A DNA stretch of 32,000 nt, from NCBI GenBank assembly GCA_964400415.1, contig CAYNTP010000021.1, positions 40,218-72,217 on the forward strand, given 5' to 3'. Position 1 is the stretch's first letter; each line of letters opens with the position of its first letter. This DNA is from an uncultured Parafilimonas sp. (GTDB taxonomy: Bacteria > Bacteroidota > Bacteroidia > Chitinophagales > Chitinophagaceae). A model generated the notes under the pieces. It worked only from the letters and a program-made list of their open reading frames with translations, did not search any database and had not been told where the DNA came from. Positions 514 to 13,976 of this stretch are shown here, one piece after another. The position numbers and the translations under genes were made by a program.

Positions 514-3500
514 TCATTTCGATTGCAGGGTAATCGTTGTCCCACATTCTGATGAAATGAGTGTTAATTGATATGCAATTTGTTCAGCCCGCATTTTCAT
601 ATTCCTGAGACCTTCACCAGGTGTTATCATTTCTTCAATAAATCCCTGTCCATCATCTTTTAAAACCATGATTACAACATCTTCCGATACATCAAAATGC
701 ACTGAAATATTTTTACAACCTGAATATTTAATACTGTTATTGACTGCTTCCTTTGCAATCATCAAAAGGTTTCTTTTTACTTTCTTATCCAGGTCAATAT
801 CATGTTGCAAAACGAAACTGATGTTTATTCCTTTTGCAAATGCTACCGGCCTTGTCAATCTTTCTATTCTCGCAAATAAATTTGATGCCTTATCATTTTT
901 ATCATCCAACACCCAAATCATATCCCGGATGCCTTCCGACATATTTTTTAATGAATCTTCAATCTGCAAAAAATAAGGTTGCTTATCTTTTGCATTTTCT
1001 GCGAGGTGTGTAAAAATTTTCAGTCCATTCAGCGTACTCCCAATATCATCATGCAAGTCACTGGCAATTTCTTCCCTCACTTTTTTCAACTGTTGCTGTT
1101 GTTGTTTTACCTGTGCAATTCTGTACCTGTAAAAAGCATATAATAAACCGGCTGTTACAAGTACAATCAATGTATAAAACCACCAGGTCTGGTACCACAT
1201 AGGAAGGATAGTAAATTCAAAGACAGCAGAACTACTGTCTGAATTGTGCACATTGTCCACCTTACCCTGTAAATGATATTTACCCGGCGGCAATCCGGCA
1301 AACGTTATCTGGTTATTGTTGCCCAGTTGAATCCAGCCATCATTTAATTCCGGGATCCTGTAAGCATAAGATATCCTGTTATGGTTTGAATAATCCGGTG
1401 AAATGATATAAAAAGTAATTGGGAAAGATTTAAATGAAAAATGTGAAGCGCCCAAAGTATTGACCTCTTCTGTTTTCCCATTATCATTCAGATAATCAAT
1501 TTTACCTACATATACCGGCTTTTTTACTGGTACCACAAAATGATTATTCCTGGATATCCTGGTAAAGCCATCAATACCACCAAAAAAAAGATCATTACCG
1601 ATTGTACAACCCGACCTTTCATCAAACGCATTTGATTGCAATCCATCTTCCTGGTAATATGCAGATGCTTTGCCGGAGATTAAATTAAACCTTGTCAAGC
1701 CTTTATTAGATGATATCCAGATAACAGAATCACTTTCATTAAGGATATTATAAGTGGCATTTGAACTAAGCCCATCCTGCTGTGTAAAATATGTACAGGA
1801 GTTATTTTGTAAATTAAATTTTATTAAACCATAACCATAAGATGAAATCCATAAATATTTTCCATCATTAAAAATATCAAAAAAGAAATGTGGCGGTGCA
1901 GGGTGGTTGTTACCGGGGAAATAGTTATGAAAAGAATCAGTTAATGGATCAAATAATGTGATGCTGTTATCACTGAGCAACCATACATTTCCAAAATTAT
2001 CAGTCTTGATATTATGATAACTATTTTCAAACGGGCCGTTTACATTACCATCCCTGTTTTTAAATACTTTGACATAATGATTTTTAATATCCCATTTTAC
2101 AAATCCCTCTTCATTCATACTCCCCATCAGAATGATACTGTCATTATATTTCATGCATGTGCTAAAGAAAAAATACTGTATTGGCTGCAGCTCTTTGAAT
2201 ACAGCAGATGCATTTTTTACATTAAATTGATCACCCACCTGTTCCATGTAAAGTAATTTTTGATTGGAAGAAACCAGCAAACCTTTCTTATCGATCCGCA
2301 TCACAGATTCTATTTCACCATATTTTTTACTCTCTAAAATTTCAGTTTCACTGTTTGTCCTGGTATTGATTTTAAATAATCCCGATGCTGCACATGCATA
2401 GATGATGGAATCATTATCAGCAAACAAAACATTAACCGATTGTATTTTACTCAAATCACCTGCTTTTGCATTAAATGCATAAAATTCAAACTCCTCATTG
2501 ATTAAATGATTAAGCCCTTTTGTAGTGGAAACCCAGATATTCCCAAACCTATCTTTGAAAAGATAATTGATGTTATCATCTAAAATAGTGTTGGAAAAAA
2601 AATTGGAATGTTTCACCGTATTTACTTCTTCATTGCTGTCAATCACTTTGATCCCATTAGCAGTTGCCAGCCACAACTCACCTTTATGCCCATACATTAT
2701 TCCACGGATATCTTCATTTTCAAATGCTTTAAAACGGTGATCTGTATTTGAAGAAGCATGATAATTTTTTCCATCGGTTTCAATACATTTAATGCCTTTA
2801 TCAGAACACAGATAAATTTTCCGTGAAGCATCAATAAAAATACTTCTTACAGAAAAAGTACTGTTGGCATTTATCTTTAATTCCTCTTTTGAAATTTTTG
2901 AAATCAGCTTTTTGGTTTCACTGTTATAAATTAATACACCTTCACCTTCAGCAACAACCAGCATATTCCGGAATGAATCGAGAGCAATAGTGCAAATATT
3001 GAAGTCATGCTTTTTATTGAAAGGGTTTTCAGTAACAGCAATACTTTGATTTGTTCTTTTATCCAAAACATTAAAACCATAATAAGTACCGATCCACAAA
3101 TTATTTCCAGGATAGTCCCAGGCAAGACACCTGACCCAATTAGTTATTAAATGACTTGTAACTGCATTATATCTTTTCTCAACTGTTAAACTTCCTGTTT
3201 CAAATACATCAATGCCACCCAATGCAGTTGCTATCCACAACTTGCCATTTTTATCAGGCACCATATCAGTTACAAAATTTTCACTAAGGCCGGTATTGCC
3301 AACCGGATCTTTTTTTACTGTAATAAAATTTTTCCCATCAAAACGGTTAATACCTTCCTGTGTTGCCACCCAGATAAAGCCATATTTATCCTGTATTATT
3401 TTCCCTGCATTATATGAACTCAAACCATTATTAAATGAATAAGTCCCGAACTGGTATTGCTGTGCACATACTGTTTTAAAACATATCATGCAAACCTGGG

Positions 3501-3591
3501 ACAGTATTATTAAAAAGAAAGCCTTAATATATTTTACAGTTAGCATGCTTATGAAATGTCCTATTAAAAATATTGGAAATTTTAATAACAT
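514..3591 (-). CDS. Sensor histidine kinase with periplasmic beta-propeller repeats + Y_Y_Y-like region, one TM helix, HisKA_3 and HATPase_c domains; no receiver or DNA-binding domain
   Basis: 1025-aa ORF. The true start may be the Met at 3546-3544 (MLTVKYIKAFFLIIL..., signal/anchor-like). Repeated propeller-type motifs: FIWVATQEGINRFDG, KLWIATALGGIDVF, NLWIGTYYGFNVLD, ELWLATANGIKVID, NIWVSTTKGLNHL, VIWISSNKGLTRF. TM helix WWFYTLIVLVTAGLLYAFY, QQQQQLKK linker, H-box SDLHDDIGSTL, N-box EAVNNSIKYS, G-boxes DDGQGF and GEGLRNM. Confidence 0.85.
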   Translation of the reverse strand: MLLKFPIFLIGHFISMLTVKYIKAFFLIILSQVCMICFKTVCAQQYQFGTYSFNNGLSSYNAGKIIQDKYGFIWVATQEGINRFDGKNFITVKKDPVGNTGLSENFVTDMVPDKNGKLWIATALGGIDVFETGSLTVEKRYNAVTSHLITNWVRCLAWDYPGNNLWIGTYYGFNVLDKRTNQSIAVTENPFNKKHDFNICTIALDSFRNMLVVAEGEGVLIYNSETKKLISKISKEELKINANSTFSVRSIFIDASRKIYLCSDKGIKCIETDGKNYHASSNTDHRFKAFENEDIRGIMYGHKGELWLATANGIKVIDSNEEVNTVKHSNFFSNTILDDNINYLFKDRFGNIWVSTTKGLNHLINEEFEFYAFNAKAGDLSKIQSVNVLFADNDSIIYACAASGLFKINTRTNSETEILESKKYGEIESVMRIDKKGLLVSSNQKLLYMEQVGDQFNVKNASAVFKELQPIQYFFFSTCMKYNDSIILMGSMNEEGFVKWDIKNHYVKVFKNRDGNVNGPFENSYHNIKTDNFGNVWLLSDNSITLFDPLTDSFHNYFPGNNHPAPPHFFFDIFNDGKYLWISSYGYGLIKFNLQNNSCTYFTQQDGLSSNATYNILNESDSVIWISSNKGLTRFNLISGKASAYYQEDGLQSNAFDERSGCTIGNDLFFGGIDGFTRISRNNHFVVPVKKPVYVGKIDYLNDNGKTEEVNTLGASHFSFKSFPITFYIISPDYSNHNRISYAYRIPELNDGWIQLGNNNQITFAGLPPGKYHLQGKVDNVHNSDSSSAVFEFTILPMWYQTWWFYTLIVLVTAGLLYAFYRYRIAQVKQQQQQLKKVREEIASDLHDDIGSTLNGLKIFTHLAENAKDKQPYFLQIEDSLKNMSEGIRDMIWVLDDKNDKASNLFARIERLTRPVAFAKGINISFVLQHDIDLDKKVKRNLLMIAKEAVNNSIKYSGCKNISVHFDVSEDVVIMVLKDDGQGFIEEMITPGEGLRNMKMRAEQIAYQLTLISSECGTTITLQSK

Positions 3592-3639: not shown

Positions 3640-5145
3640 ATGAAAGCAGCCTGGACAATCATGTTGTACATGAATGTAGAACCCGAAGGATTTGATACAG
3701 GGTTCAGAAAAAATCAATGGGAAATGTTGCTAACCGGCAGTACTGAAAAAGTTCAGATCATTGCGCTTGTTGACAGGAACCCTCCCAATAAAAAAGTTAG
3801 GCGTAGAGAAAAAGAATTTCTTTATCCATCTATTTACAGGATAGAAAAAAATATTGAAATAAAATTGTCAACAAAACCATTACACATTATCAAAGATGAT
3901 GACATTGGTAAACATACAGTGTTGAAACAATTCCTGGATTATTGCATTGAAAATTTTCCTGCTGAAAAATATATGCTGTCATTCTGGGATCATGGTCTTG
4001 GCAATGGTGTTACTGCCAGTCCTGAAAAACCAGAAAAGAAAGACGTAGAAGAATTGAGTCAAAGAAAAAACCTGTCTGTTTTAGGTCGCAGGCATGTGAA
4101 TGCCATCAACCAGCAAACATTTTCCCGGGTACCTGTTGGCAGTACTTTTCATTTTGCGAATACTGCTTTATTAAAAAAGTTCACCCTTAGTAACAAGAAA
4201 ATATCAGGATTAACATCAAACAAACCTGACACCAAACAGGATTATCTCTATGCCAAAGAAATCAGTACAGCCATCAAAAAATCTTTTGGTAAAGAAAATA
4301 AAATTGACATCATCGCATTTGATGCCTGCTGGATGCAGACATTTGAAAATGCATATGCACTCAGGGATGTAGCAAAATATATGGTGGCCAGCGAAAACCT
4401 GATCTCACTTCAGGGGTTTGGCTATTATCTGTTTTTTAAATATCTCTCAGCAATGCCAGATGCTACACCTGAAGATATTGCAGCTTTATTAATCAAGTCA
4501 AGTTATTTAAAAGTTTCAGACACACTGGAAGCAAAAACACCTGAAGAACTTGTAAAGCTTTACTACACCAAAATATATGATGATAATAAAATGACTTTAT
4601 CCTGCATTGATTTATCAGTTACAAAAATGGTTGCGGATAAAATTGATGCATTAGCAAGGTTGCTCGAAAAAGGATTGGATGATTATTTTGATTACATCAG
4701 GATAGCCCGTTTTTTATGCTTAAGTTTTTTTGATGAAGAAGATCCTGCAGGGTATGATTTAAAAGTTATAGACCTGGTTTATTTTTTAAAAAAGCTTTCA
4801 GAAAACCTGCTCACAGCTTTACATTCAAAAGATAAAAATGATCCTGACATTTATTCGCCAGTCATAAACCTCTGCAATGAAATATCGGATATAGCAGAAC
4901 TACATTTTGTGATTTATAAAGAAATGGGGCCGGCCATGCGGGAAGAGAAAGAAGCAGATAAACGATGGGGCACACATGGCTTCTCAATATTTTTTCCTGA
5001 ACATTATTTTGAATGGAAGAATTATAAAAATTCAGAAGGCTGGTATTTTGAAACACATAAAAGCATACAGATGCCATTTGCAGTAGAAAATTATTGGAAA
5101 GAATTCCTGAAAAAATATTTTGCGATGCTGAATAAGAAGGTGTGA
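3640..5145 (+). CDS. Clostripain-like (peptidase family C11, clan CD) cysteine peptidase homologue, apparently cytoplasmic
   Basis: 501-aa ORF that starts directly with the family's first strand, WTIMLYMN. His118 sits in FWDHGLG (codon 3991-3993) and Cys230 in IIAFDACWMQ (codon 4327-4329), matching the His-then-Cys dyad order of clan CD. No signal peptide or lipobox. Confidence 0.7.
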   Translation: MKAAWTIMLYMNVEPEGFDTGFRKNQWEMLLTGSTEKVQIIALVDRNPPNKKVRRREKEFLYPSIYRIEKNIEIKLSTKPLHIIKDDDIGKHTVLKQFLDYCIENFPAEKYMLSFWDHGLGNGVTASPEKPEKKDVEELSQRKNLSVLGRRHVNAINQQTFSRVPVGSTFHFANTALLKKFTLSNKKISGLTSNKPDTKQDYLYAKEISTAIKKSFGKENKIDIIAFDACWMQTFENAYALRDVAKYMVASENLISLQGFGYYLFFKYLSAMPDATPEDIAALLIKSSYLKVSDTLEAKTPEELVKLYYTKIYDDNKMTLSCIDLSVTKMVADKIDALARLLEKGLDDYFDYIRIARFLCLSFFDEEDPAGYDLKVIDLVYFLKKLSENLLTALHSKDKNDPDIYSPVINLCNEISDIAELHFVIYKEMGPAMREEKEADKRWGTHGFSIFFPEHYFEWKNYKNSEGWYFETHKSIQMPFAVENYWKEFLKKYFAMLNKKV

Positions 5146-5264: not shown

Positions 5265-7205
5265 TTAGCGCGCTGTAAAATTGTATGAGACACCAAAAAA
5301 CCAGCTACGTCGAGTATCTGTAATTGTCGGCACTAAATTATCAGTTGTGGTATAAAAAATTGGTGTTGAATTTGGATTTGAAGAATCTCTCCTGTTTACT
5401 CCCGTTTTTACAGTATTACTAAGTTTTTTTACTTTACCCCAAATCAAGCCACCTGAAATAACAAACCTCCTATTAGAACCCAATAGTAAACTACCACCTA
5501 ACATAAAATTTAATTCTGTTTCTGTATTAACTGCGAGACCTGCCGTTAGTGAAATATTGCAGTTACTACTGATCCTCGGATAAGCATGTACCAAAACCCC
5601 AAACCCAATTTTACTTTTACCAGAATTTTCTCTAATCACAATTTTACCAGTAGTATCCACAAGGGTTTGAATAGAATTAGTTGTATCATCTGGTCTTCGA
5701 TATTTTACTGTTGAATCAATAAATACATAATTGGCATCTTTCAGACCTGTAAGAAAAATGCCAGTGCTGAAATCAATTTTAAAACCACCAAACAACCGCA
5801 TTTCTTCAGTTTTGATATCATTGCCTTTTTTGTCTTTAAATGTCATTGTCAGATAATCATAATTCTTTAATTTCTGCGCAAGAAAAGAATACGTTTGCAT
5901 ATTAAATACCCGGTTATACAACTTATCAATTTCTTTAATAAGCTTATTCAGATCATCATCTTCTTTTTGATCTGTTTTGTATTTAGATATCAATTCTGAA
6001 ATTGACATCCTGAACACTTCCTTCACTTTATCATTGATATATTGAAGGTTTTTCAAATGTCGTTGCATAGTGGCTGAATTAAAATTGAAATTTGCATTGT
6101 AATAAAACAAATCGTTTCTTAATTTAATAAGATTTTCAGCATTTGAATTTGCTACTGAATCTTTATCCTTTGATTTTTGTAATTCTGTTTTGTTTGTTTT
6201 TCCAATATCTTTTTTCGATGTATCACTGGCATTTATATTTCCGGTTTTTTCAAGAATTGATTTAAAATTTGCTTCATCTTCCAGGAAATTATCTTTATAG
6301 GTAAAAGATAAATTAATAGAATCATCAGCGCTATAATTCATTAATTCCACTTTAAATTGGGATCCTACCGGCGGTGTGTACCACATTGATTTTTTCCATT
6401 TATAATATTCAATACCTATGCAACAATTCTTGCATTCGGGGCTATCCGGGCAACCTTGTTTATTTGGGTTGGCAGATATTATAGGCTTTCTTACTTTTTT
6501 CTTCAAAGTGTAATAATCCCCATTTTTCATATCATACAACCAAATATATTCACCAGGCAATTGCTTATCATATTTATTATTCATACAATGTTGTAAGTTA
6601 CCATAACCAAAAGTTTGCAAATTGTTGAACATTTCTTTAGTAATGAATACAAATGATGGATTCCCTAATGAAATTCCTATTGATTTAAGTTTTTCAAGAA
6701 CCAAATCCCTTTCTGTATTATCTTTCACAACATCATCCTTGCCATTAGCCTGCTCTTCATTACTCATTTTTATTGCTTTACCCGGTTCATTATTTTTCGA
6801 TTTTAAGTTCATTGATACATTTTTTATATTCTTACCTGAATCTTTCAATTTATTTAAGTAAGTTTTAATAGGAATTTTTATTTCCATGCCATCCTTCATT
6901 TTCTTAAGATGCTTTTCTACGATTTTTAATGAATCAAATAAATCCTTCAAAGTAATCGGCTTAGAGAGTTTATTTTCTTTATCTTTTTCTTCTGTATAAG
7001 TATATCTTAATGTAGAAAGTAAAATGATACTATCAAAGTCTTCTTTTGGAAATTTAGTTATTAATATTTCATCAATGTTAAGTGAATCACTAAAAACTTT
7101 TGCGGTATCATTCCATTTAATTTCCATAGACACTAGTTTTGAAGATTGACTCATTGCATAATTGCTTGCAAGCAGGAATACAATAAACAGGATTGTGTTT
7201 TTCAT
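5265..7205 (-). CDS. Secreted hypothetical protein: signal peptide, Lys/Asn-rich coiled-coil-like middle, Cys cluster, probable C-terminal outer-membrane beta-barrel
   Basis: 646-aa ORF. N-terminus MKNTILFIVFLLASNYAMSQ is SPI-like. Cys cluster CPDSPECKNCC. The last ~180 aa show alternating hydrophobic beta-strand patterns (FGGFKIDFSTGIFLTG, KIGFGVLVHAYP, ISLTAGLAVN, LNFMLGGSLLLG, FVISGGLIWG) and end in WFFGVSYNFTAR. I recognise no family. Confidence 0.6.
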   Translation of the reverse strand: MKNTILFIVFLLASNYAMSQSSKLVSMEIKWNDTAKVFSDSLNIDEILITKFPKEDFDSIILLSTLRYTYTEEKDKENKLSKPITLKDLFDSLKIVEKHLKKMKDGMEIKIPIKTYLNKLKDSGKNIKNVSMNLKSKNNEPGKAIKMSNEEQANGKDDVVKDNTERDLVLEKLKSIGISLGNPSFVFITKEMFNNLQTFGYGNLQHCMNNKYDKQLPGEYIWLYDMKNGDYYTLKKKVRKPIISANPNKQGCPDSPECKNCCIGIEYYKWKKSMWYTPPVGSQFKVELMNYSADDSINLSFTYKDNFLEDEANFKSILEKTGNINASDTSKKDIGKTNKTELQKSKDKDSVANSNAENLIKLRNDLFYYNANFNFNSATMQRHLKNLQYINDKVKEVFRMSISELISKYKTDQKEDDDLNKLIKEIDKLYNRVFNMQTYSFLAQKLKNYDYLTMTFKDKKGNDIKTEEMRLFGGFKIDFSTGIFLTGLKDANYVFIDSTVKYRRPDDTTNSIQTLVDTTGKIVIRENSGKSKIGFGVLVHAYPRISSNCNISLTAGLAVNTETELNFMLGGSLLLGSNRRFVISGGLIWGKVKKLSNTVKTGVNRRDSSNPNSTPIFYTTTDNLVPTITDTRRSWFFGVSYNFTAR

Positions 7206-7270
7206 GTGTTTATTTTTTTAACGATTATTATATTTCAACTTTAATTCATGTTTATTTAACCATTTTTTCT

Positions 7271-8413
7271 CTAAAATGAAATACCTTTTATATGATGAAC
7301 CGGAATTATGTAGGAATAGTTTTCATCATCGCCTGCAAACACAAAACCAATAAGCAGGTTATCCTTAACAACAGGAGCGCCTGAATCACCAAATGTTGAC
7401 ATTCTGGTAGTCATAATAATATTCTGAAAACTTTTTCCACTTATCTCACAGGTTGTGGATGTAGCAAGTATGGTCCCTGTTTGAAGACCTGAAACCCTAC
7501 CGATTGACTCTACCTCATGGTTCAATAAAAGGTTTATGTCACCTTCATCTGCTATATCATTAATAAATCTTCCATTAAAAAAATTTTGCATTTGCATATT
7601 TTCATCCGCATCTGCCAAAGCATAATCTGATGATATTTGACAATTTGACCATGAAACTTTTAATGTATAATTTACCTGGTTAAATAAATCGGGAACTACA
7701 ACTTCAACTTCAGAATTACTAAAATTTTCATTTCTAAAATTTATTTCCTGTGAACCCAACATCATCACATGGCAACAACTTAAAATATACTTTTTATTTC
7801 CTTTTTTAACGATTGCAGTTCTTGTACCATATTCTTTTGAGTGGTTCTGTTGAAAAATTTTTCCACCCATCTGCAAAGGCGAAATATTGTCGGGATCAGG
7901 ATTTACAGGGTTATTTTCAATTGCCAACTGAAAATTTGATTCTTTAACTTCTGTAACATCGGTTTGCATTTTTACTCCTTTATGCACTATGAACTCTGGT
8001 ACAGGGTTTTGAAGATTTTCAATTTCATTTTTTGTTGCTACAAAAAATATCAGGGATATAGTATTTTTTTTATCAAAATTCTTATAACCAATTCCACATC
8101 CTTTATACCCTTCAATTTTTTTTGAATATTCGAAATAATGATTGTTTTGAATGTCTTTTGCAATAGCAAATAACAAGTATTCATTTATCACCTGGTTTTC
8201 TAATTCAAATTCAATTTCTGAAATACCTCCACTCCAGTAAAAGCAATTATCATCTTTACAATGATACCATATTGAATTACCATCAATATTTGAGCCTGTA
8301 ACTACTTTATCAATATCCAAATTATCTCCAGGCATTTTATATGTATTACAAACGGCGTTTGTGGATGGTTCACCAATACGTGTATTCAGGTATTTATTAA
8401 CGGTTAATATCAT
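7271..8413 (-). CDS. Chymotrypsin-fold (S1-like) serine peptidase with N-terminal SH3b-like domain and a middle domain of unknown function; no signal peptide
   Basis: 380-aa ORF. Putative triad: His215 (ILSCCHVMM), Asp263 (SSDYALADA), Ser344 (FGDSGAPVV; Ser codon TCA at 7384-7382 on the minus strand). Residues ~6-65 (LNTRIGEPST...GDNLDIDKVV...GNSIWYHCKDDNCFYWSGGI) resemble bacterial SH3 domains. The ATG overlaps the upstream stop (TAATG at 8415-8411). Confidence 0.75.
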   Translation of the reverse strand: MILTVNKYLNTRIGEPSTNAVCNTYKMPGDNLDIDKVVTGSNIDGNSIWYHCKDDNCFYWSGGISEIEFELENQVINEYLLFAIAKDIQNNHYFEYSKKIEGYKGCGIGYKNFDKKNTISLIFFVATKNEIENLQNPVPEFIVHKGVKMQTDVTEVKESNFQLAIENNPVNPDPDNISPLQMGGKIFQQNHSKEYGTRTAIVKKGNKKYILSCCHVMMLGSQEINFRNENFSNSEVEVVVPDLFNQVNYTLKVSWSNCQISSDYALADADENMQMQNFFNGRFINDIADEGDINLLLNHEVESIGRVSGLQTGTILATSTTCEISGKSFQNIIMTTRMSTFGDSGAPVVKDNLLIGFVFAGDDENYSYIIPVHHIKGISF

Positions 8414-9729
8414 TATCCTACTCTTTTGGGAGTTGATGAATTATTTTGATTTGATGTACCTGATGTGCTTACATCTCCAGTAATTGATCCCGATGAGTTG
8501 TTCCCATTATTTTTTATTGAGATAAGTTTACTTAAAAGATCGAACCAAAATGATGCACCAAGAGAAATTGCAAATGCGGTTAATAACCAACCTACCAGCA
8601 TTGTTCCTTTTTCCTGGTATGGGTTACCATCACAATGAAATTTCTCATTACATTTTTTAATCTCATTTTTCAGCTGTTTTAATTTTGTGGTGTCATCAGG
8701 GCTGCAACATGATAGTCTTTGTTTTAATGAATCACAGATTTTGCAACTATCTTTATTTGGCCATCCTAACCCTGCTATATTATTAGCCTTATCAATATCC
8801 GACATCACAGTATTTTTTGCAGTTTCTAAAATGCTATCAGGTATTTTCGATATTATACTTCTGGTAATTGTATCTTTAATAATCACTGTATCTTTTTTAG
8901 CACTATATGATGTGTCTGAGTTTTGATGTGCAGATAAAATCTGCGAAGTGTCAGATAGTTGTTTTACCAAATCTTTATATTTTGGTACTGAGACAGTGGC
9001 CAACTGAACAAGGTTTTCCCTGGCTGTTTTATCTTTTGCAAGAATTTTATATATGGCAATTGTATCCACATTAAAATTTATTGCAAGAAAAAAACCTATT
9101 AAAAACAGCATAAGCCTATTTTGCCTTTTATACCATCCCGTAGTTCTATCCATTGTATTATTGAACCAACCATCCAATGCGCTTTCGAATTTATCAATAT
9201 CATTATTAGCATCAAGGAATGTTTTTTGCAAATGGTTCAAGGTATCAGGATCAATAGAAATTTCCGGGCCATTTAGAGGCCGGAAAGTTTTCAAGCTAAA
9301 CAATGCCTCCCTTAGCAAATTTATTTTGGGGGTTAAACCATCATAATTGTTTCCTATAAGAAGATATATTAATGTGGATGAAAAATCAACGGCATTAATA
9401 TATGCAGGTTTACTATTCCACTTACTTTCACTGAGATATTTTATCGTCGGATAATTGAAAAATGCCTTTGTAAAATTGCTTTTGGACTTGTATGAAGGGT
9501 TAAAAAAACGAACTAATGAAAACCATATTTCAATAAAAGCATTGGTGATTGTAAAATCAAAATTTTTATTGTCATCTTCCAACATCCTCCTTATTCCTTT
9601 TTGAAGCATCCTGCCTCTTAAATTAAACCATCTCGCTAACATCTCCTGCAGTATCGTCGCCAGCAAACTATACAACAAATAAATAAATACCAATCCGATA
9701 AATACATCGAGGGCAACATTGTTAAACAT
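8413..9729 (-). CDS. Three-TM membrane protein of unknown function with a six-Cys cluster and a Ser/Asn/Gly-rich tail
   Basis: 438-aa ORF. Hydrophobic helices at ~5-28 (ALDVFIGLVFIYLLYSLLATIL), ~205-228 (LMLFLIGFFLAINFNVDTIAIY) and ~376-398 (MLVGWLLTAFAISLGASFWFDLL). Cys329/332/341/342/360/366 follow C-x2-C-x8-CC-x17-C-x5-C. The tail is NNGNNSSGSITGDVSTSGTSNQNNSSTPKRVG. Confidence 0.7.
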   Translation of the reverse strand: MFNNVALDVFIGLVFIYLLYSLLATILQEMLARWFNLRGRMLQKGIRRMLEDDNKNFDFTITNAFIEIWFSLVRFFNPSYKSKSNFTKAFFNYPTIKYLSESKWNSKPAYINAVDFSSTLIYLLIGNNYDGLTPKINLLREALFSLKTFRPLNGPEISIDPDTLNHLQKTFLDANNDIDKFESALDGWFNNTMDRTTGWYKRQNRLMLFLIGFFLAINFNVDTIAIYKILAKDKTARENLVQLATVSVPKYKDLVKQLSDTSQILSAHQNSDTSYSAKKDTVIIKDTITRSIISKIPDSILETAKNTVMSDIDKANNIAGLGWPNKDSCKICDSLKQRLSCCSPDDTTKLKQLKNEIKKCNEKFHCDGNPYQEKGTMLVGWLLTAFAISLGASFWFDLLSKLISIKNNGNNSSGSITGDVSTSGTSNQNNSSTPKRVG

Positions 9730-12329: not shown

Positions 12330-13976
12330 TTATCCTTCAAACGAACTATAGAAGTAAGGGGTCTTTGCTTCAAACTCTGCACTACATGTGTCCACCATTT
12401 TATAAACCCTGGTAATACCTAAAGCTTTACGTTTTTCATACACCTGTTCTGCAGTACAATTATTTTTTACAATACGTGCAATTTGTTCATCACTGAAGCC
12501 ATTGTGTTTTGCTTCTTTCAACAGGTCTTCTGTCAAATCTTCCAAAGTATGATGAGCTAATTCTTTTTCGATTCTTACTATTTCCTGTATCTGGTAAATA
12601 AACCAACGGTCAATATAAGTTTCCTGCACAATAGTTTTAGCGGTAACACCCTGCATCAAAGCATCTTTGATACGGAAGATGCGGTCCCATTTTGGTGTCT
12701 TGATATATTCAATCAACTCATCACTCTTCATGAGGCTTTTCCCATAATAACCTAAACCGACAGCTTCATTTTCCAAACTCTGACAAGCTTTTTGTATAGC
12801 TTCATTAAAGCTCCTGCCGATAGCCATCACTTCACCCACGCTTTTCATCTGCAAGCCAAGCGTATCATTTGCTCCTTTGAATTTGTCAAAATTCCAGCGC
12901 GGCATTTTTACAATCACATAATCCAATGCAGGTTCAAAATATGCAGACGTTGTTTTTGTAATCTGGTTTTTTAATTCATCCATTGTATAACCGATAGCCA
13001 GTTTTGCAGCAATCTTAGCAATAGGATAACCGGTTGCCTTGCTCGCCAATGCAGACGAACGGCTAACTCTCGGATTTATTTCTACAGCAATGATTTCTTC
13101 AGTCTCAGGATTCAATGCAAACTGCACATTACAACCTCCTGCGAAATTGCCAAGGCTGCGCATCATCTTCATTGCCTGGTTGCGCATCTCCTGGTAAGCT
13201 GTATCGCTTAATGTCATCGCCGGTGCTACTGTTATTGAATCACCTGTATGAATGCCCATCGGATCAAGGTTTTCAACTGTGCAGATGATAACAACGTTAT
13301 CATTTTTATCACGCAACAATTCAAGCTCAAATTCTTTCCACCCCAACACAGCTTTTTCTACTAATACTTCATGAATGGGTGAGGCCTGCAAGCCACGTTG
13401 CAATGCATCATCTAATTCTGATTTATCATGTACAAAACCACCACCTGTTCCACCTAAAGTAAATGATGGACGAATCACTAATGGGAAACCAATCTCCTGT
13501 GCAAATTCTTTCCCTTCTAAAAAACTATTGGCAACATGACTTGGCGCTACACTGATGCCGATATCAATCATCAATTCCCTGAATTTTTCCCTGTCTTCAG
13601 CCACTTTAATAGCATCAACATCAACACCAATCATCCGCACATTATTTTTTTCCCAAACACCTAACTCATCTGCTTCAATGCAAAGGTTCAATGCAGTTTG
13701 TCCACCCATTGTCGGCAACACAGCATCAATTTCATTTTCCTGCAGGATCTGTTCAATGCTCTCTACAGTCAATGGCAATAAATACACTTTATCCGCCATC
13801 ATCGGGTCGGTCATGATAGTAGCCGGGTTACTGTTGATGAGTACAACTTTTATTCCTTCTTCACGTAAACTTCTTGCAGCTTGTGAACCACTGTAATCAA
13901 ACTCGCAGGCCTGCCCAATGATGATTGGACCGGAACCAATAATTAAAACAGATTTAATAGAATTATCTTTTGGCAT
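12330..13976 (-). CDS. carB: Carbamoyl-phosphate synthase large subunit, N-terminal half only (first ATP-grasp + oligomerisation domain)
   Basis: 548 aa. VLIIGSGPIIIGQACEFDYSGSQA, PTMGGQTALN, VIRPSFTLGGTGGG, NVQFALNPETEEIIAVEINPRVSRSSALASKATGYPIAKIAAKLAIGY. It ends ...EFEAKTPYFYSSFEG*, where full-length CarB continues into the second ATP-grasp half. Confidence 0.88.
   Translation of the reverse strand: MPKDNSIKSVLIIGSGPIIIGQACEFDYSGSQAARSLREEGIKVVLINSNPATIMTDPMMADKVYLLPLTVESIEQILQENEIDAVLPTMGGQTALNLCIEADELGVWEKNNVRMIGVDVDAIKVAEDREKFRELMIDIGISVAPSHVANSFLEGKEFAQEIGFPLVIRPSFTLGGTGGGFVHDKSELDDALQRGLQASPIHEVLVEKAVLGWKEFELELLRDKNDNVVIICTVENLDPMGIHTGDSITVAPAMTLSDTAYQEMRNQAMKMMRSLGNFAGGCNVQFALNPETEEIIAVEINPRVSRSSALASKATGYPIAKIAAKLAIGYTMDELKNQITKTTSAYFEPALDYVIVKMPRWNFDKFKGANDTLGLQMKSVGEVMAIGRSFNEAIQKACQSLENEAVGLGYYGKSLMKSDELIEYIKTPKWDRIFRIKDALMQGVTAKTIVQETYIDRWFIYQIQEIVRIEKELAHHTLEDLTEDLLKEAKHNGFSDEQIARIVKNNCTAEQVYEKRKALGITRVYKMVDTCSAEFEAKTPYFYSSFEG

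Follow-up and report, generated by a model that had tools for sequence, protein, structure and literature searches.

What joins three neighboring genes whose products are predicted to reside in three different compartments of a bacterial cell? The question arises at positions 5,265–9,729 of a 32,000-nucleotide (nt) stretch of DNA from an uncultured Parafilimonas sp. (contig CAYNTP010000021.1; this whole stretch is hereafter called the window). A first-pass annotation, made from the sequence alone, had described there a 438-amino-acid (aa) protein with three transmembrane (TM) helices (hereafter MEM), a 380-aa serine protease whose start overlaps the stop of the upstream gene and, after a gap of 65 nt, a 646-aa secreted protein. 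We found the three open reading frames (ORFs), all on the minus strand, exactly where that annotation had placed them, with the same lengths, overlap, and gap. We show below that MEM is joined, by translational coupling or by fusion, to a signal-less, envelope-attacking hydrolase whose catalytic domain is interchangeable. The module most likely controls envelope breaching.

A membrane protein coupled to interchangeable hydrolases

We surveyed the partners of MEM in 80 loci from GTDB genomes and assigned their catalytic classes by clustering the C-terminal parts of the proteins and then scanning them against Pfam. MEM is linked to a hydrolase, either adjoining or fused, in approximately 48 of the 80 loci (~60 per cent). 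The gene after MEM repeatedly opens with an SH3b-like domain of ~70 aa (LNxR...G...WY...YWxGG) and ends with a differing C-terminal domain. In 36 loci, such an SH3-tagged hydrolase starts within −11 to +11 nt of the MEM stop codon, with most starts at −4, −1, or +1 to +3 nt. The catalytic domains of the SH3-tagged partners (counted as loci or genes) are Peptidase_S8 (19), S1 of the type present in the window (9), GH46-like (7), DUF900 alpha/beta-hydrolase (4), GH25 muramidase (3), Amidase_2 with GH19-like (1), and YdjC-like (1); the SH3b-like N-terminal domain is common to the S8, GH46, GH25, DUF900, YdjC, and S1 partners. Partners that lack the SH3-like domain are an S8 peptidase ~200 nt downstream of MEM in two loci (L033 and L055) and Tle1-like, papain-like, or alpha/beta hydrolases beside MEM in four. 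In five further GTDB loci and two metagenome loci, an S1 domain (motifs SCWHVLKGD...GDSG) is fused to MEM itself. The Pfam assignments lie above threshold (Peptidase_S8, 122 bits; GH25, 129; GH46, 37; Amidase_2, 105; DUF900, 44; YdjC, 104; Tle1-like phospholipase PF09994, 292 bits, E = 6.8e-87; Peptidase_C1, 46). A ‘protease family’ returned by Jackhmmer was rejected as such, because its members are united by the SH3-like domain and not by the catalytic domain.

All partner enzymes are without a signal peptide, and their substrates lie mostly outside the cytoplasm. Two hydrolases stand in tandem (GH25 or GH46, then S8) in four loci, and the gene order in L012, L031, and L078 is MEM, GH25, S8, and an exported protein. 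RefSeq annotation independently confirms the MEM/hydrolase pattern in other phyla: a Caballeronia plasmid carries MEM, an N-acetylmuramoyl-L-alanine amidase with a PG_binding_1-like C-terminus, and a peptidoglycan-binding/GH19-like protein; a Hymenobacter plasmid carries MEM, an amidase, and a 984-aa trypsin+S8 protein; and Rhizobium phaseoli carries a cell wall hydrolase, MEM, and a metallophosphoesterase. Because muramidases, amidases, lipases, and subtilases fill the same position, the protease can be regarded as one swappable cargo or effector and MEM as the constant gate, anchor, or sensor.

The C-terminal tail of MEM differs between linked and solo forms. Tails of hydrolase-linked MEMs have median lengths of 33–48 aa and end in x-[V/K/A]-Gly, whereas those of solo MEMs are short (median 22 aa) and Lys-rich; both the terminal Gly and the SH3-like domain are missing from the MEM–S1 fusions. 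All four Gly codons are used for the terminal Gly of the linked tails. Tails ending in GEEAVG pair with one class of SH3-like domain (KLNKRS..GKWYKD..YWGGG), which is attached to GH46, GH25, S8, or an unassigned enzyme, and tails ending in (N/K)R(V/K/A)G pair with another (YLNxRxGxPSxNAP..YWSGG), which is attached to S8, S1, or DUF900. Tail class and SH3 class thus covary independently of the catalytic domain, S8 occurring with either class. From this pairing we infer an interaction of the SH3-like domain with the MEM tail, which would act as a docking peptide.

The AlphaFold2 (AF2) model of MEM, built from 117 sequences, is confident and all-helical (pLDDT 87.6, pTM 0.81) and contains the three hydrophobic helices whose approximate limits are given in Table 1; Foldseek returned no significant neighbor of it in PDB or BFVD. 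Across the family, the TM helices and the TM1–TM2 region are highly conserved, and the TM2–TM3 domain varies both in sequence and in length (62–266 aa). The 20 residues after TM1 contain on average 4.9 K+R versus 0.1 D+E, the segment after TM3 contains 3.6 versus 0.8, and the median number of Cys is 3 in the TM2–TM3 region versus 0 in the TM1–TM2 domain. On the basis of this charge bias and Cys distribution, MEM is predicted to have an N-out/C-in topology with a cytoplasmic C-terminal tail. The six-Cys cluster described in the first-pass annotation is present (residues 329, 332, 341, 342, 360, and 366; window positions 8632–8745), but only C329, C332, and C366 are conserved in the family (in 53–68 per cent of 117 homologs), and the cluster is therefore partly lineage-specific. 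The neighbor-joining tree of MEM is star-like, with solo and hydrolase-linked forms intermixed and no clean clades.

The MEM family comprises >1,140 homologous protein clusters, all annotated as ‘hypothetical’ and none with a Pfam domain, and occurs in at least 577 GTDB species genomes, mostly of Bacteroidota with some Ignavibacteria. Plasmid-borne copies in Proteobacteria and Cyanobacteria were detected by tblastn, and solo MEMs are syntenic within Chitinophaga. No MEM was found in 50,697 phage genomes, and 2.9 million viral contigs (IMG/VR) yielded two weak matches; MEM is not a phage gene. One IMG/VR contig of high GC content (L086, 7992–10671) encodes a short, 278-aa MEM homolog followed by a 513-aa lipoprotein-like protein, flanked by ParB-like DNA methyltransferases and a terminase-like gene; lysis or moron genes of phages are frequently located in such a slot. 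On plasmids of Rhizobium, Agrobacterium, and Paracoccus (L177, L181, and L182), short MEM homologs are the last genes of a conserved operon of three hypothetical genes and a ‘vanadium-dependent haloperoxidase’ (PAP2-like), a partner unlike those in Bacteroidota. The MEM/amidase pairs of the Caballeronia (L176) and Hymenobacter (L178) plasmids are strikingly alike, including the tail ...DGCEV...LPAA(Q/E)GGV(I/A), which suggests a recent cross-phylum transfer between Betaproteobacteria and Bacteroidota.

The protease of the window is an S1 peptidase by the order of its His, Asp, and Ser residues, by its GDSG motif, and by profile matches that exceed the threshold in its relatives. Its own matches to Pfam Trypsin_2 and Trypsin are below threshold (E ~0.01; 17.3 bits versus a cut-off of 27.6 bits), a relative reaches Trypsin_2 at 4.6e-08, PF13365 is precomputed on the proteins P0139 and P0141, and PHROG 20754 (‘protease’) matches the window protein at 2e-11. 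The catalytic triad proposed in the first-pass annotation (H215, D263, and S344, the last within GDSG) is invariant in nine homologs, from which we deduce that the protease is probably active; the lack of a hydrophobic signal sequence at its N-terminus was likewise noted correctly. No SH3 profile matches the window protease itself, and SH3_3 or SH3_5 matches three of 45 homologous N-terminal domains (5.7e-05 to 1.7e-03); we call its first 66 residues SH3b-like on the strength of these matches in relatives. Sequence that, judged by eye, resembles the middle domain of the protease precedes the protease domain in the MEM–S1 fusions. Two residues in the SH3-like hairpin (Cys52 and Cys57; WYHCKDDxCFYW) are kept in the closest relatives and not in L002 or L050; they could form a disulfide or a metal site, which would be odd for a cytoplasmic domain.

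The exported partner and the window locus

A third gene encoding a signal peptide was found only with protease variants of the MEM module. In the window, the AF2 model of its product (pLDDT 72) comprises mixed N-terminal domains, a helical bundle (residues 348–434), and ~11 strands (residues 436–642, pLDDT ~72–92), and the protein ends in WFFGVSYNF, which resembles a beta-signal. No Pfam outer membrane protein family matches it. A crude scan detected period-2 hydrophobicity in the C-terminal domain, which is probably an outer-membrane barrel. The three compartments that had been assigned to the three products (inner membrane, cytoplasm, and envelope) are therefore reasonable, the signal peptide being typical and the barrel probable.

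Third genes belong to two families. The one in the window (A2-type) comprises 1,391 clusters at a cut-off of E <= 1e-3 and 802 at the stricter E <= 1e-10 in a full search with a hidden Markov model (HMM), and its conservation is concentrated in the C-terminal two-thirds of the protein (profile positions ~250–614). Its members accompany separate SH3-tagged S1 proteases in the window and in L002, L050, L084, L085, and L088–L090, and fused S1 proteases in L098 and L169. The other family (fam3; ~650–870 aa, 25 loci) accompanies S8 or fused S1 proteases. HMM and hhalign comparisons detected no similarity between the two beyond the signal peptide; the period-2 scan, which is crude and its signal weak, indicates beta-rich C-termini in both. 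As an association, then, the protease variants bring with them a Sec-exported partner with a beta-rich, barrel-like C-terminus.

Away from MEM, too, the A2-type family keeps company with peptidases. Among 83 genes adjoining A2-type members in metagenome loci, six encode Trypsin_2, five M10/astacin, two caspase, and two pYEATS domains, and the metzincins among these neighbors carry signal peptides; the family is thus associated with peptidases, and its members probably encounter them outside the cytoplasm. Other members are located between HsdR and HsdS, beside reverse transcriptase (RT), HNH, LRR-TIR, pYEATS-metzincin, and SMEK genes, and ahead of U49 (Lit-like) and C1 peptidase genes (L096). 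Hence, the conflict-system logic suspected in the first-pass annotation is partly supported, by the third-gene family, which stands beside peptidases and in conflict-type neighborhoods, but the protease does not appear to be the partner that defines MEM and activates it by cleavage.

Three distant homologs of the 646-aa protein (L091, 1432–3648; L094, 6001–9138; L096, 6001–10377) lie in a type I restriction–modification (RM) operon, next to pYEATS-metzincin, SMEK, RT, and LRR-TIR genes, or ahead of U49 and papain-like peptidases; they may be independent, undescribed peptidase–effector defense modules. On two metagenome contigs (L119, 2082–3416; L107, 2632–4089), trypsin-like proteases with an N-terminal TM helix are encoded directly upstream of third-gene homologs and may be minimal membrane-anchored equivalents of the MEM–S1 fusion.

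The cassette of MEM, SH3-tagged S1 protease, and third gene occurs in at least seven genomes of different genera with unrelated flanks. Together with the MEM–protease fusions, this bears out the view that the genes form a functional unit. The S1-type cassette itself is rare; word searches returned 7 and 15 clusters. The cassette is flanked by beta-lactamase and GDSL lipase genes in Mucilaginibacter, by two TIR genes, AAA_15, and LD_cluster3 in Chitinophaga dinghuensis, and by metabolic genes in another genome; since the neighborhood differs from genome to genome, the module is self-contained and mobile. In the window, which is of low, Bacteroidota-like GC content (~29–44 per cent), the flanking genes are cellular and not of phage origin.

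The features of the locus are listed in Table 1. The MEM stop codon and the protease start codon have one base in common (TAATG). The gap before the third gene (7206–7270) is only −4 to 13 nt long in relatives, on account of which we regard the three genes as an operon. A promoter and terminator scan detected no terminator-like site in this gap; the scan performed at chance level, and its model does not cover Bacteroidota promoters. An identical copy of the locus is present in three metagenome assemblies, where database gene calls (P0001; L081–L083) start MEM 29 codons downstream (409 aa). That call removes the most conserved TM helix, and the 438-aa start is backed by homologs. None of the three proteins has a curated-threshold match in Pfam, NCBIfam, or PADLOC, and PDB sequence and profile searches with them returned nothing; in the PHROG scan, the match of the middle protein to a ‘protease’ family was the sole one. 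As the first-pass annotation had surmised, no named defense system is recognized by PADLOC, of whose component models (PADLOC-DB 2.0) none matches the three proteins or the neighboring C11 peptidase.

Table 1. Positions in the window of the three genes and of the parts of their products.
Feature	Positions	Strand	Evidence
MEM, 438-aa three-TM inner-membrane protein	8413..9729	(-)	ORF, homologs, AF2 model
MEM TM1, residues 5–34, most conserved segment, MFNNVALDVFIGLxFIFLLYSLLATILQE	9628..9717	(-)	Alignments, AF2 helix
MEM conserved helical domain, residues 35–205, predicted cytoplasmic	9115..9627	(-)	Charge bias, Cys median 0, many invariant residues
MEM TM2, residues 206–227, invariant G212, A216, D222	9049..9114	(-)	Within long AF2 helix 178–219
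MEM variable domain, residues 228–376, predicted periplasmic	8602..9048	(-)	Length variation, Cys enrichment
MEM TM3, residues 377–399, conserved GWLLTALAISLGAPFWFDLL, small-xxx-small motifs	8533..8601	(-)	Alignments, AF2
MEM C-terminal tail, residues 400–438, low-complexity, ends ...PKRVG, predicted cytoplasmic	8416..8532	(-)	Tail comparison
Leaderless serine protease, 380 aa, translationally coupled to MEM	7271..8413	(-)	ORF, TAATG overlap, invariant triad
Protease SH3b-like domain, residues 1–66	8216..8413	(-)	Invariant YLNxRxG...DGNxxWY...YWSGG
Protease middle domain, residues 75–165	7919..8191	(-)	Alignment of relatives
Protease S1 chymotrypsin-fold domain (H215, 7769–7771; D263, 7625–7627; S344, 7382–7384)	7289..7831	(-)	Triad, sub-threshold trypsin matches
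Third gene, 646-aa exported partner (A2-type)	5265..7205	(-)	ORF, model, 1,391-cluster family
Signal peptide of third protein, residues 1–21, MKNTILFIVFLLASNYAMS, followed by Q	7143..7205	(-)	Typical signature; equivalent N-terminus in homologs
Beta-rich C-terminal domain of third protein, residues 436–646, ends WFFGVSYNF	5268..5900	(-)	AF2 strands, Foldseek, conservation

Downstream of the cassette lies a divergent pair of genes, a Reg_prop/Y_Y_Y/HisKA_3 sensor kinase (514–3591, minus strand) and a signal-less, clostripain-like Peptidase_C11 (3640–5145, plus strand). In the closest relatives (L084 and L085), the pair is upstream of the cassette, and a LuxR-type response regulator is additionally present. 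We considered the peptidase and the kinase as core parts and rejected them: they adjoin the cassette only in the window, L084, and L085, and are absent beside the cassettes of L002, L088, L089, and L090. The pair may be plain synteny or a lineage-specific regulator. Elsewhere in the window, a 548-aa ORF (12330–13976, minus strand) resembles the large subunit of carbamoyl-phosphate synthase (CPSase_L_D1/D2/D3) at approximately half the usual length and may be a split carB.

Possible functions of the module

We tentatively favor, at a probability of roughly 0.4, a holin/endolysin-like suicide or lysis module of non-phage nature, in which MEM controls the entry of a docked enzyme into the envelope and, in the window, the protease cleaves an outer-membrane partner. 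The hydrolase would be stored on the cytoplasmic tail of MEM through its SH3b-like domain. A trigger, sensed by either the conserved cytoplasmic or the variable periplasmic domain of MEM, would then let the docked enzyme reach the periplasm, much as holins admit endolysins. Variants with muralytic or lipolytic enzymes would attack the wall or the membrane directly, and the protease variant would cleave the exported partner, thereby breaching or permeabilizing the outer layers. The cell would lyse itself in a programmed manner, with abortive-infection-type suicide as the most plausible purpose and regulated lysis or release as an alternative one.

Several observations weigh against this mechanism, every step of which is inferred. 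Approximately 40 per cent of the MEM genes in the 80 loci have no adjoining hydrolase, so that MEM has, or had, an autonomous role. With 438 aa, two large soluble domains, and a model that has no structural match, MEM is unlike any known holin, and it is absent from the phage genomes searched. The terminal Gly of linked tails could reflect a nucleotide constraint, GG being placed just upstream of the overlapping ATG, and the covariation of tails and SH3-like domains could be due in part to shared ancestry. For the third protein, the top PDB matches in Foldseek are the barrels FadL, OmpA, and OmpX, none of them significant (E >= 0.19). An examination of the flanks, which the first-pass annotation had suggested as a check for defense islands, brought up a few defense-like genes (GmrSD twice, AAA_21 twice, and patatin three times, as raw counts without a background comparison), but the 113 flanking proteins from 40 loci are heterogeneous and mostly metabolic, and any enrichment in defense islands is weak. 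The main difficulty, however, is the MEM–S1 fusions: fusion anchors the protease covalently on the side predicted to be cytoplasmic, so that its release into the periplasm would need self-cleavage or some other mechanism.

A broader version of the favored mechanism is doubtful. According to it, MEM would be a new, non-phage, sensor-gated machine for envelope breaching that keeps interchangeable, SH3-tagged lytic enzymes on a docking peptide until it discharges them into the envelope, and the 646-aa family (~1,400 clusters) would supply protease-triggered outer-membrane effectors to many immune systems.

The cytoplasmic location predicted for the MEM tail and for the fused protease would also suit an enzyme that never crosses the membrane. 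The exported partner would then sense something happening at the envelope, for instance phage adsorption or damage, and signal through the periplasmic domain of MEM, which would activate the protease or set it free in the cytoplasm to cut targets there. Membrane-embedded sensors are known in the defense systems Kiwa and Zorya. Moreover, the periplasmic domain is the variable part of MEM, with a median of 134–189 aa where a third gene is present versus ~107–110 aa, and the third gene occurs only with protease variants. Such trans-envelope signaling nevertheless leaves the muramidase, amidase, and GH46 variants unexplained, as these have periplasmic substrates and no third gene, and the pairing of the third-gene family elsewhere with signal-peptide metzincins points to periplasmic proteolysis. 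We therefore consider it improbable, although it is the strongest of the alternatives.

A somewhat smaller chance is given to a non-lytic route for the export of antibacterial or predatory enzymes, akin in its logic to polymorphic toxins or type 10 secretion, with MEM as a translocator that reads the SH3-like tag and the third protein as an aid to outer-membrane passage or anchoring. A constant N-terminal domain joined to a polymorphic C-terminal enzyme is a hallmark of polymorphic toxins, the repertoire of amidases, muramidases, and Tle1-like lipases matches that of type VI secretion system (T6SS) effectors, and many MEM hosts are lytic or gliding Bacteroidota. Yet the muralytic or lipase variants are not followed by a conserved immunity gene, and their surroundings contain no secretion apparatus; moreover, folded enzymes are unlikely to pass through a three-TM protein, and the barrel of the third protein is small.

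Envelope remodeling or quality control, the second hypothesis of the first-pass annotation, is clearly less likely still. MEM is widespread, with well-conserved TM and cytoplasmic parts, many of its flanking genes are housekeeping genes, and the solo forms show the synteny in Chitinophaga described above, all of which would suit a housekeeping module. It is disfavored by the swapping of the catalytic domain among unrelated enzyme classes, by the patchy and mobile distribution (plasmid copies and the apparent transfer between Hymenobacter and Caballeronia), by the rarity of the S1-type cassette and its different context in each genome, and by enzymes that lack export signals. Least likely is the first hypothesis in its gasdermin-like form, in which the protease cleaves MEM itself to make a pore: the protease adjoins MEM, is translationally coupled and sometimes fused to it, and protease-activated pore formers are established (bGSDM, EACC1, and Pepco; Evans et al., bioRxiv 10.1101/2025.11.14.688446), but the same position is held by glycosidases, amidases, and lipases that cannot cut MEM, MEM also occurs solo, is a constitutive integral membrane protein, and does not resemble gasdermin, EACC1, or Pepco in Pfam and PADLOC scans, and the protease variants co-occur specifically with another candidate substrate, the third gene.

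If the favored lysis mechanism is correct, cellular genomes, and not only phages, encode regulated systems that carry lytic enzymes without signal peptides across the inner membrane, catalytic ‘warheads’ can be swapped by means of a simple peptide/SH3 docking code, and bacteria possess an outer-membrane counterpart of protease-activated death effectors. A context, and a function that can be tested, would be provided for two unannotated families, namely MEM (>1,100 clusters in at least 577 species) and the exported partner (~1,400 clusters). The module would have a bearing on abortive infection, on programmed lysis, on how Bacteroidota release vesicles and extracellular DNA, and on efforts to engineer lysis modules that can be controlled.

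Comparison with known systems

In the searchable literature, we found no description of the MEM module, of the pairing of tail and SH3-like domain, or of the third-gene family. The nearest analogs are holin–endolysin(–spanin) cassettes, of which domesticated forms exist in the lysis modules of tailocins and gene transfer agents and in type 10 secretion (Serratia ChiWXYZ). Class I holins span the membrane with three TM helices in an N-out/C-in orientation and end in a basic cytoplasmic segment; MEM, likewise, has three TM helices and a basic segment after TM3. In relatives of the window locus, MEM adjoins signal-less GH25, Amidase_2+PG_binding_1, and GH19-like proteins, which are typical endolysin architectures, and L012, L031, and L078 encode inner-membrane, wall, and outer-layer components in series. 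In contrast to holins, which are small (~70–220 aa) proteins with one to four TM helices and a charged C-terminus, MEM is three to five times larger and has a conserved cytoplasmic and a variable periplasmic domain; scans of Pfam, NCBIfam, and PHROGs assign it to no holin family, and its context is not that of a phage, prophage, or tailocin. The cargo of the module also includes proteases and lipases and is apparently docked through SH3-like domain and tail. The enzyme of the window is itself an S1 protease and not muralytic, the muralytic neighbors being found in its relatives.

The protease–effector modules (bGSDM, Pepco/Trypco, EACC1, and MBL; Evans et al. and Kaur et al. 2020) offer a second parallel, as in them, too, a protease adjoins a non-enzymatic, probable substrate. 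The third-gene family behaves like an effector encoded beside diverse proteases, with recurrent peptidase neighbors (trypsin-like, caspase, and metzincin) and members in TIR, RM, and RT neighborhoods. Effectors coupled through adaptors, including lysozyme-like and papain-like enzymes, have been described in EAD systems (Kaur et al. 2020, PMC7159879). Unlike the named effectors, to which neither MEM nor the 646-aa protein is homologous in Pfam and PADLOC searches, the putative substrate here is Sec-exported and outer-membrane-like and not a cytosolic pro-toxin. In addition, the window protease carries no STAND, NTPase, or other recognizable sensor as a fused part, and the constant partner is an integral membrane protein, MEM.

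With polymorphic toxins and T6SS effectors (Tae, Tge, and Tle), the module has in common a constant N-terminal part, interchangeable C-terminal enzymes, and the enzyme classes themselves, including the Tle1-like PF09994. It differs from them in having no immunity gene (in GH46-only and DUF900 loci, no downstream gene is conserved), no secretion machinery nearby, and enzymes that are coupled to a three-TM protein. In its logic, the module can be said to resemble holin–endolysin, protease–effector, and polymorphic-toxin systems alike, while departing from each of them in at least one defining feature.

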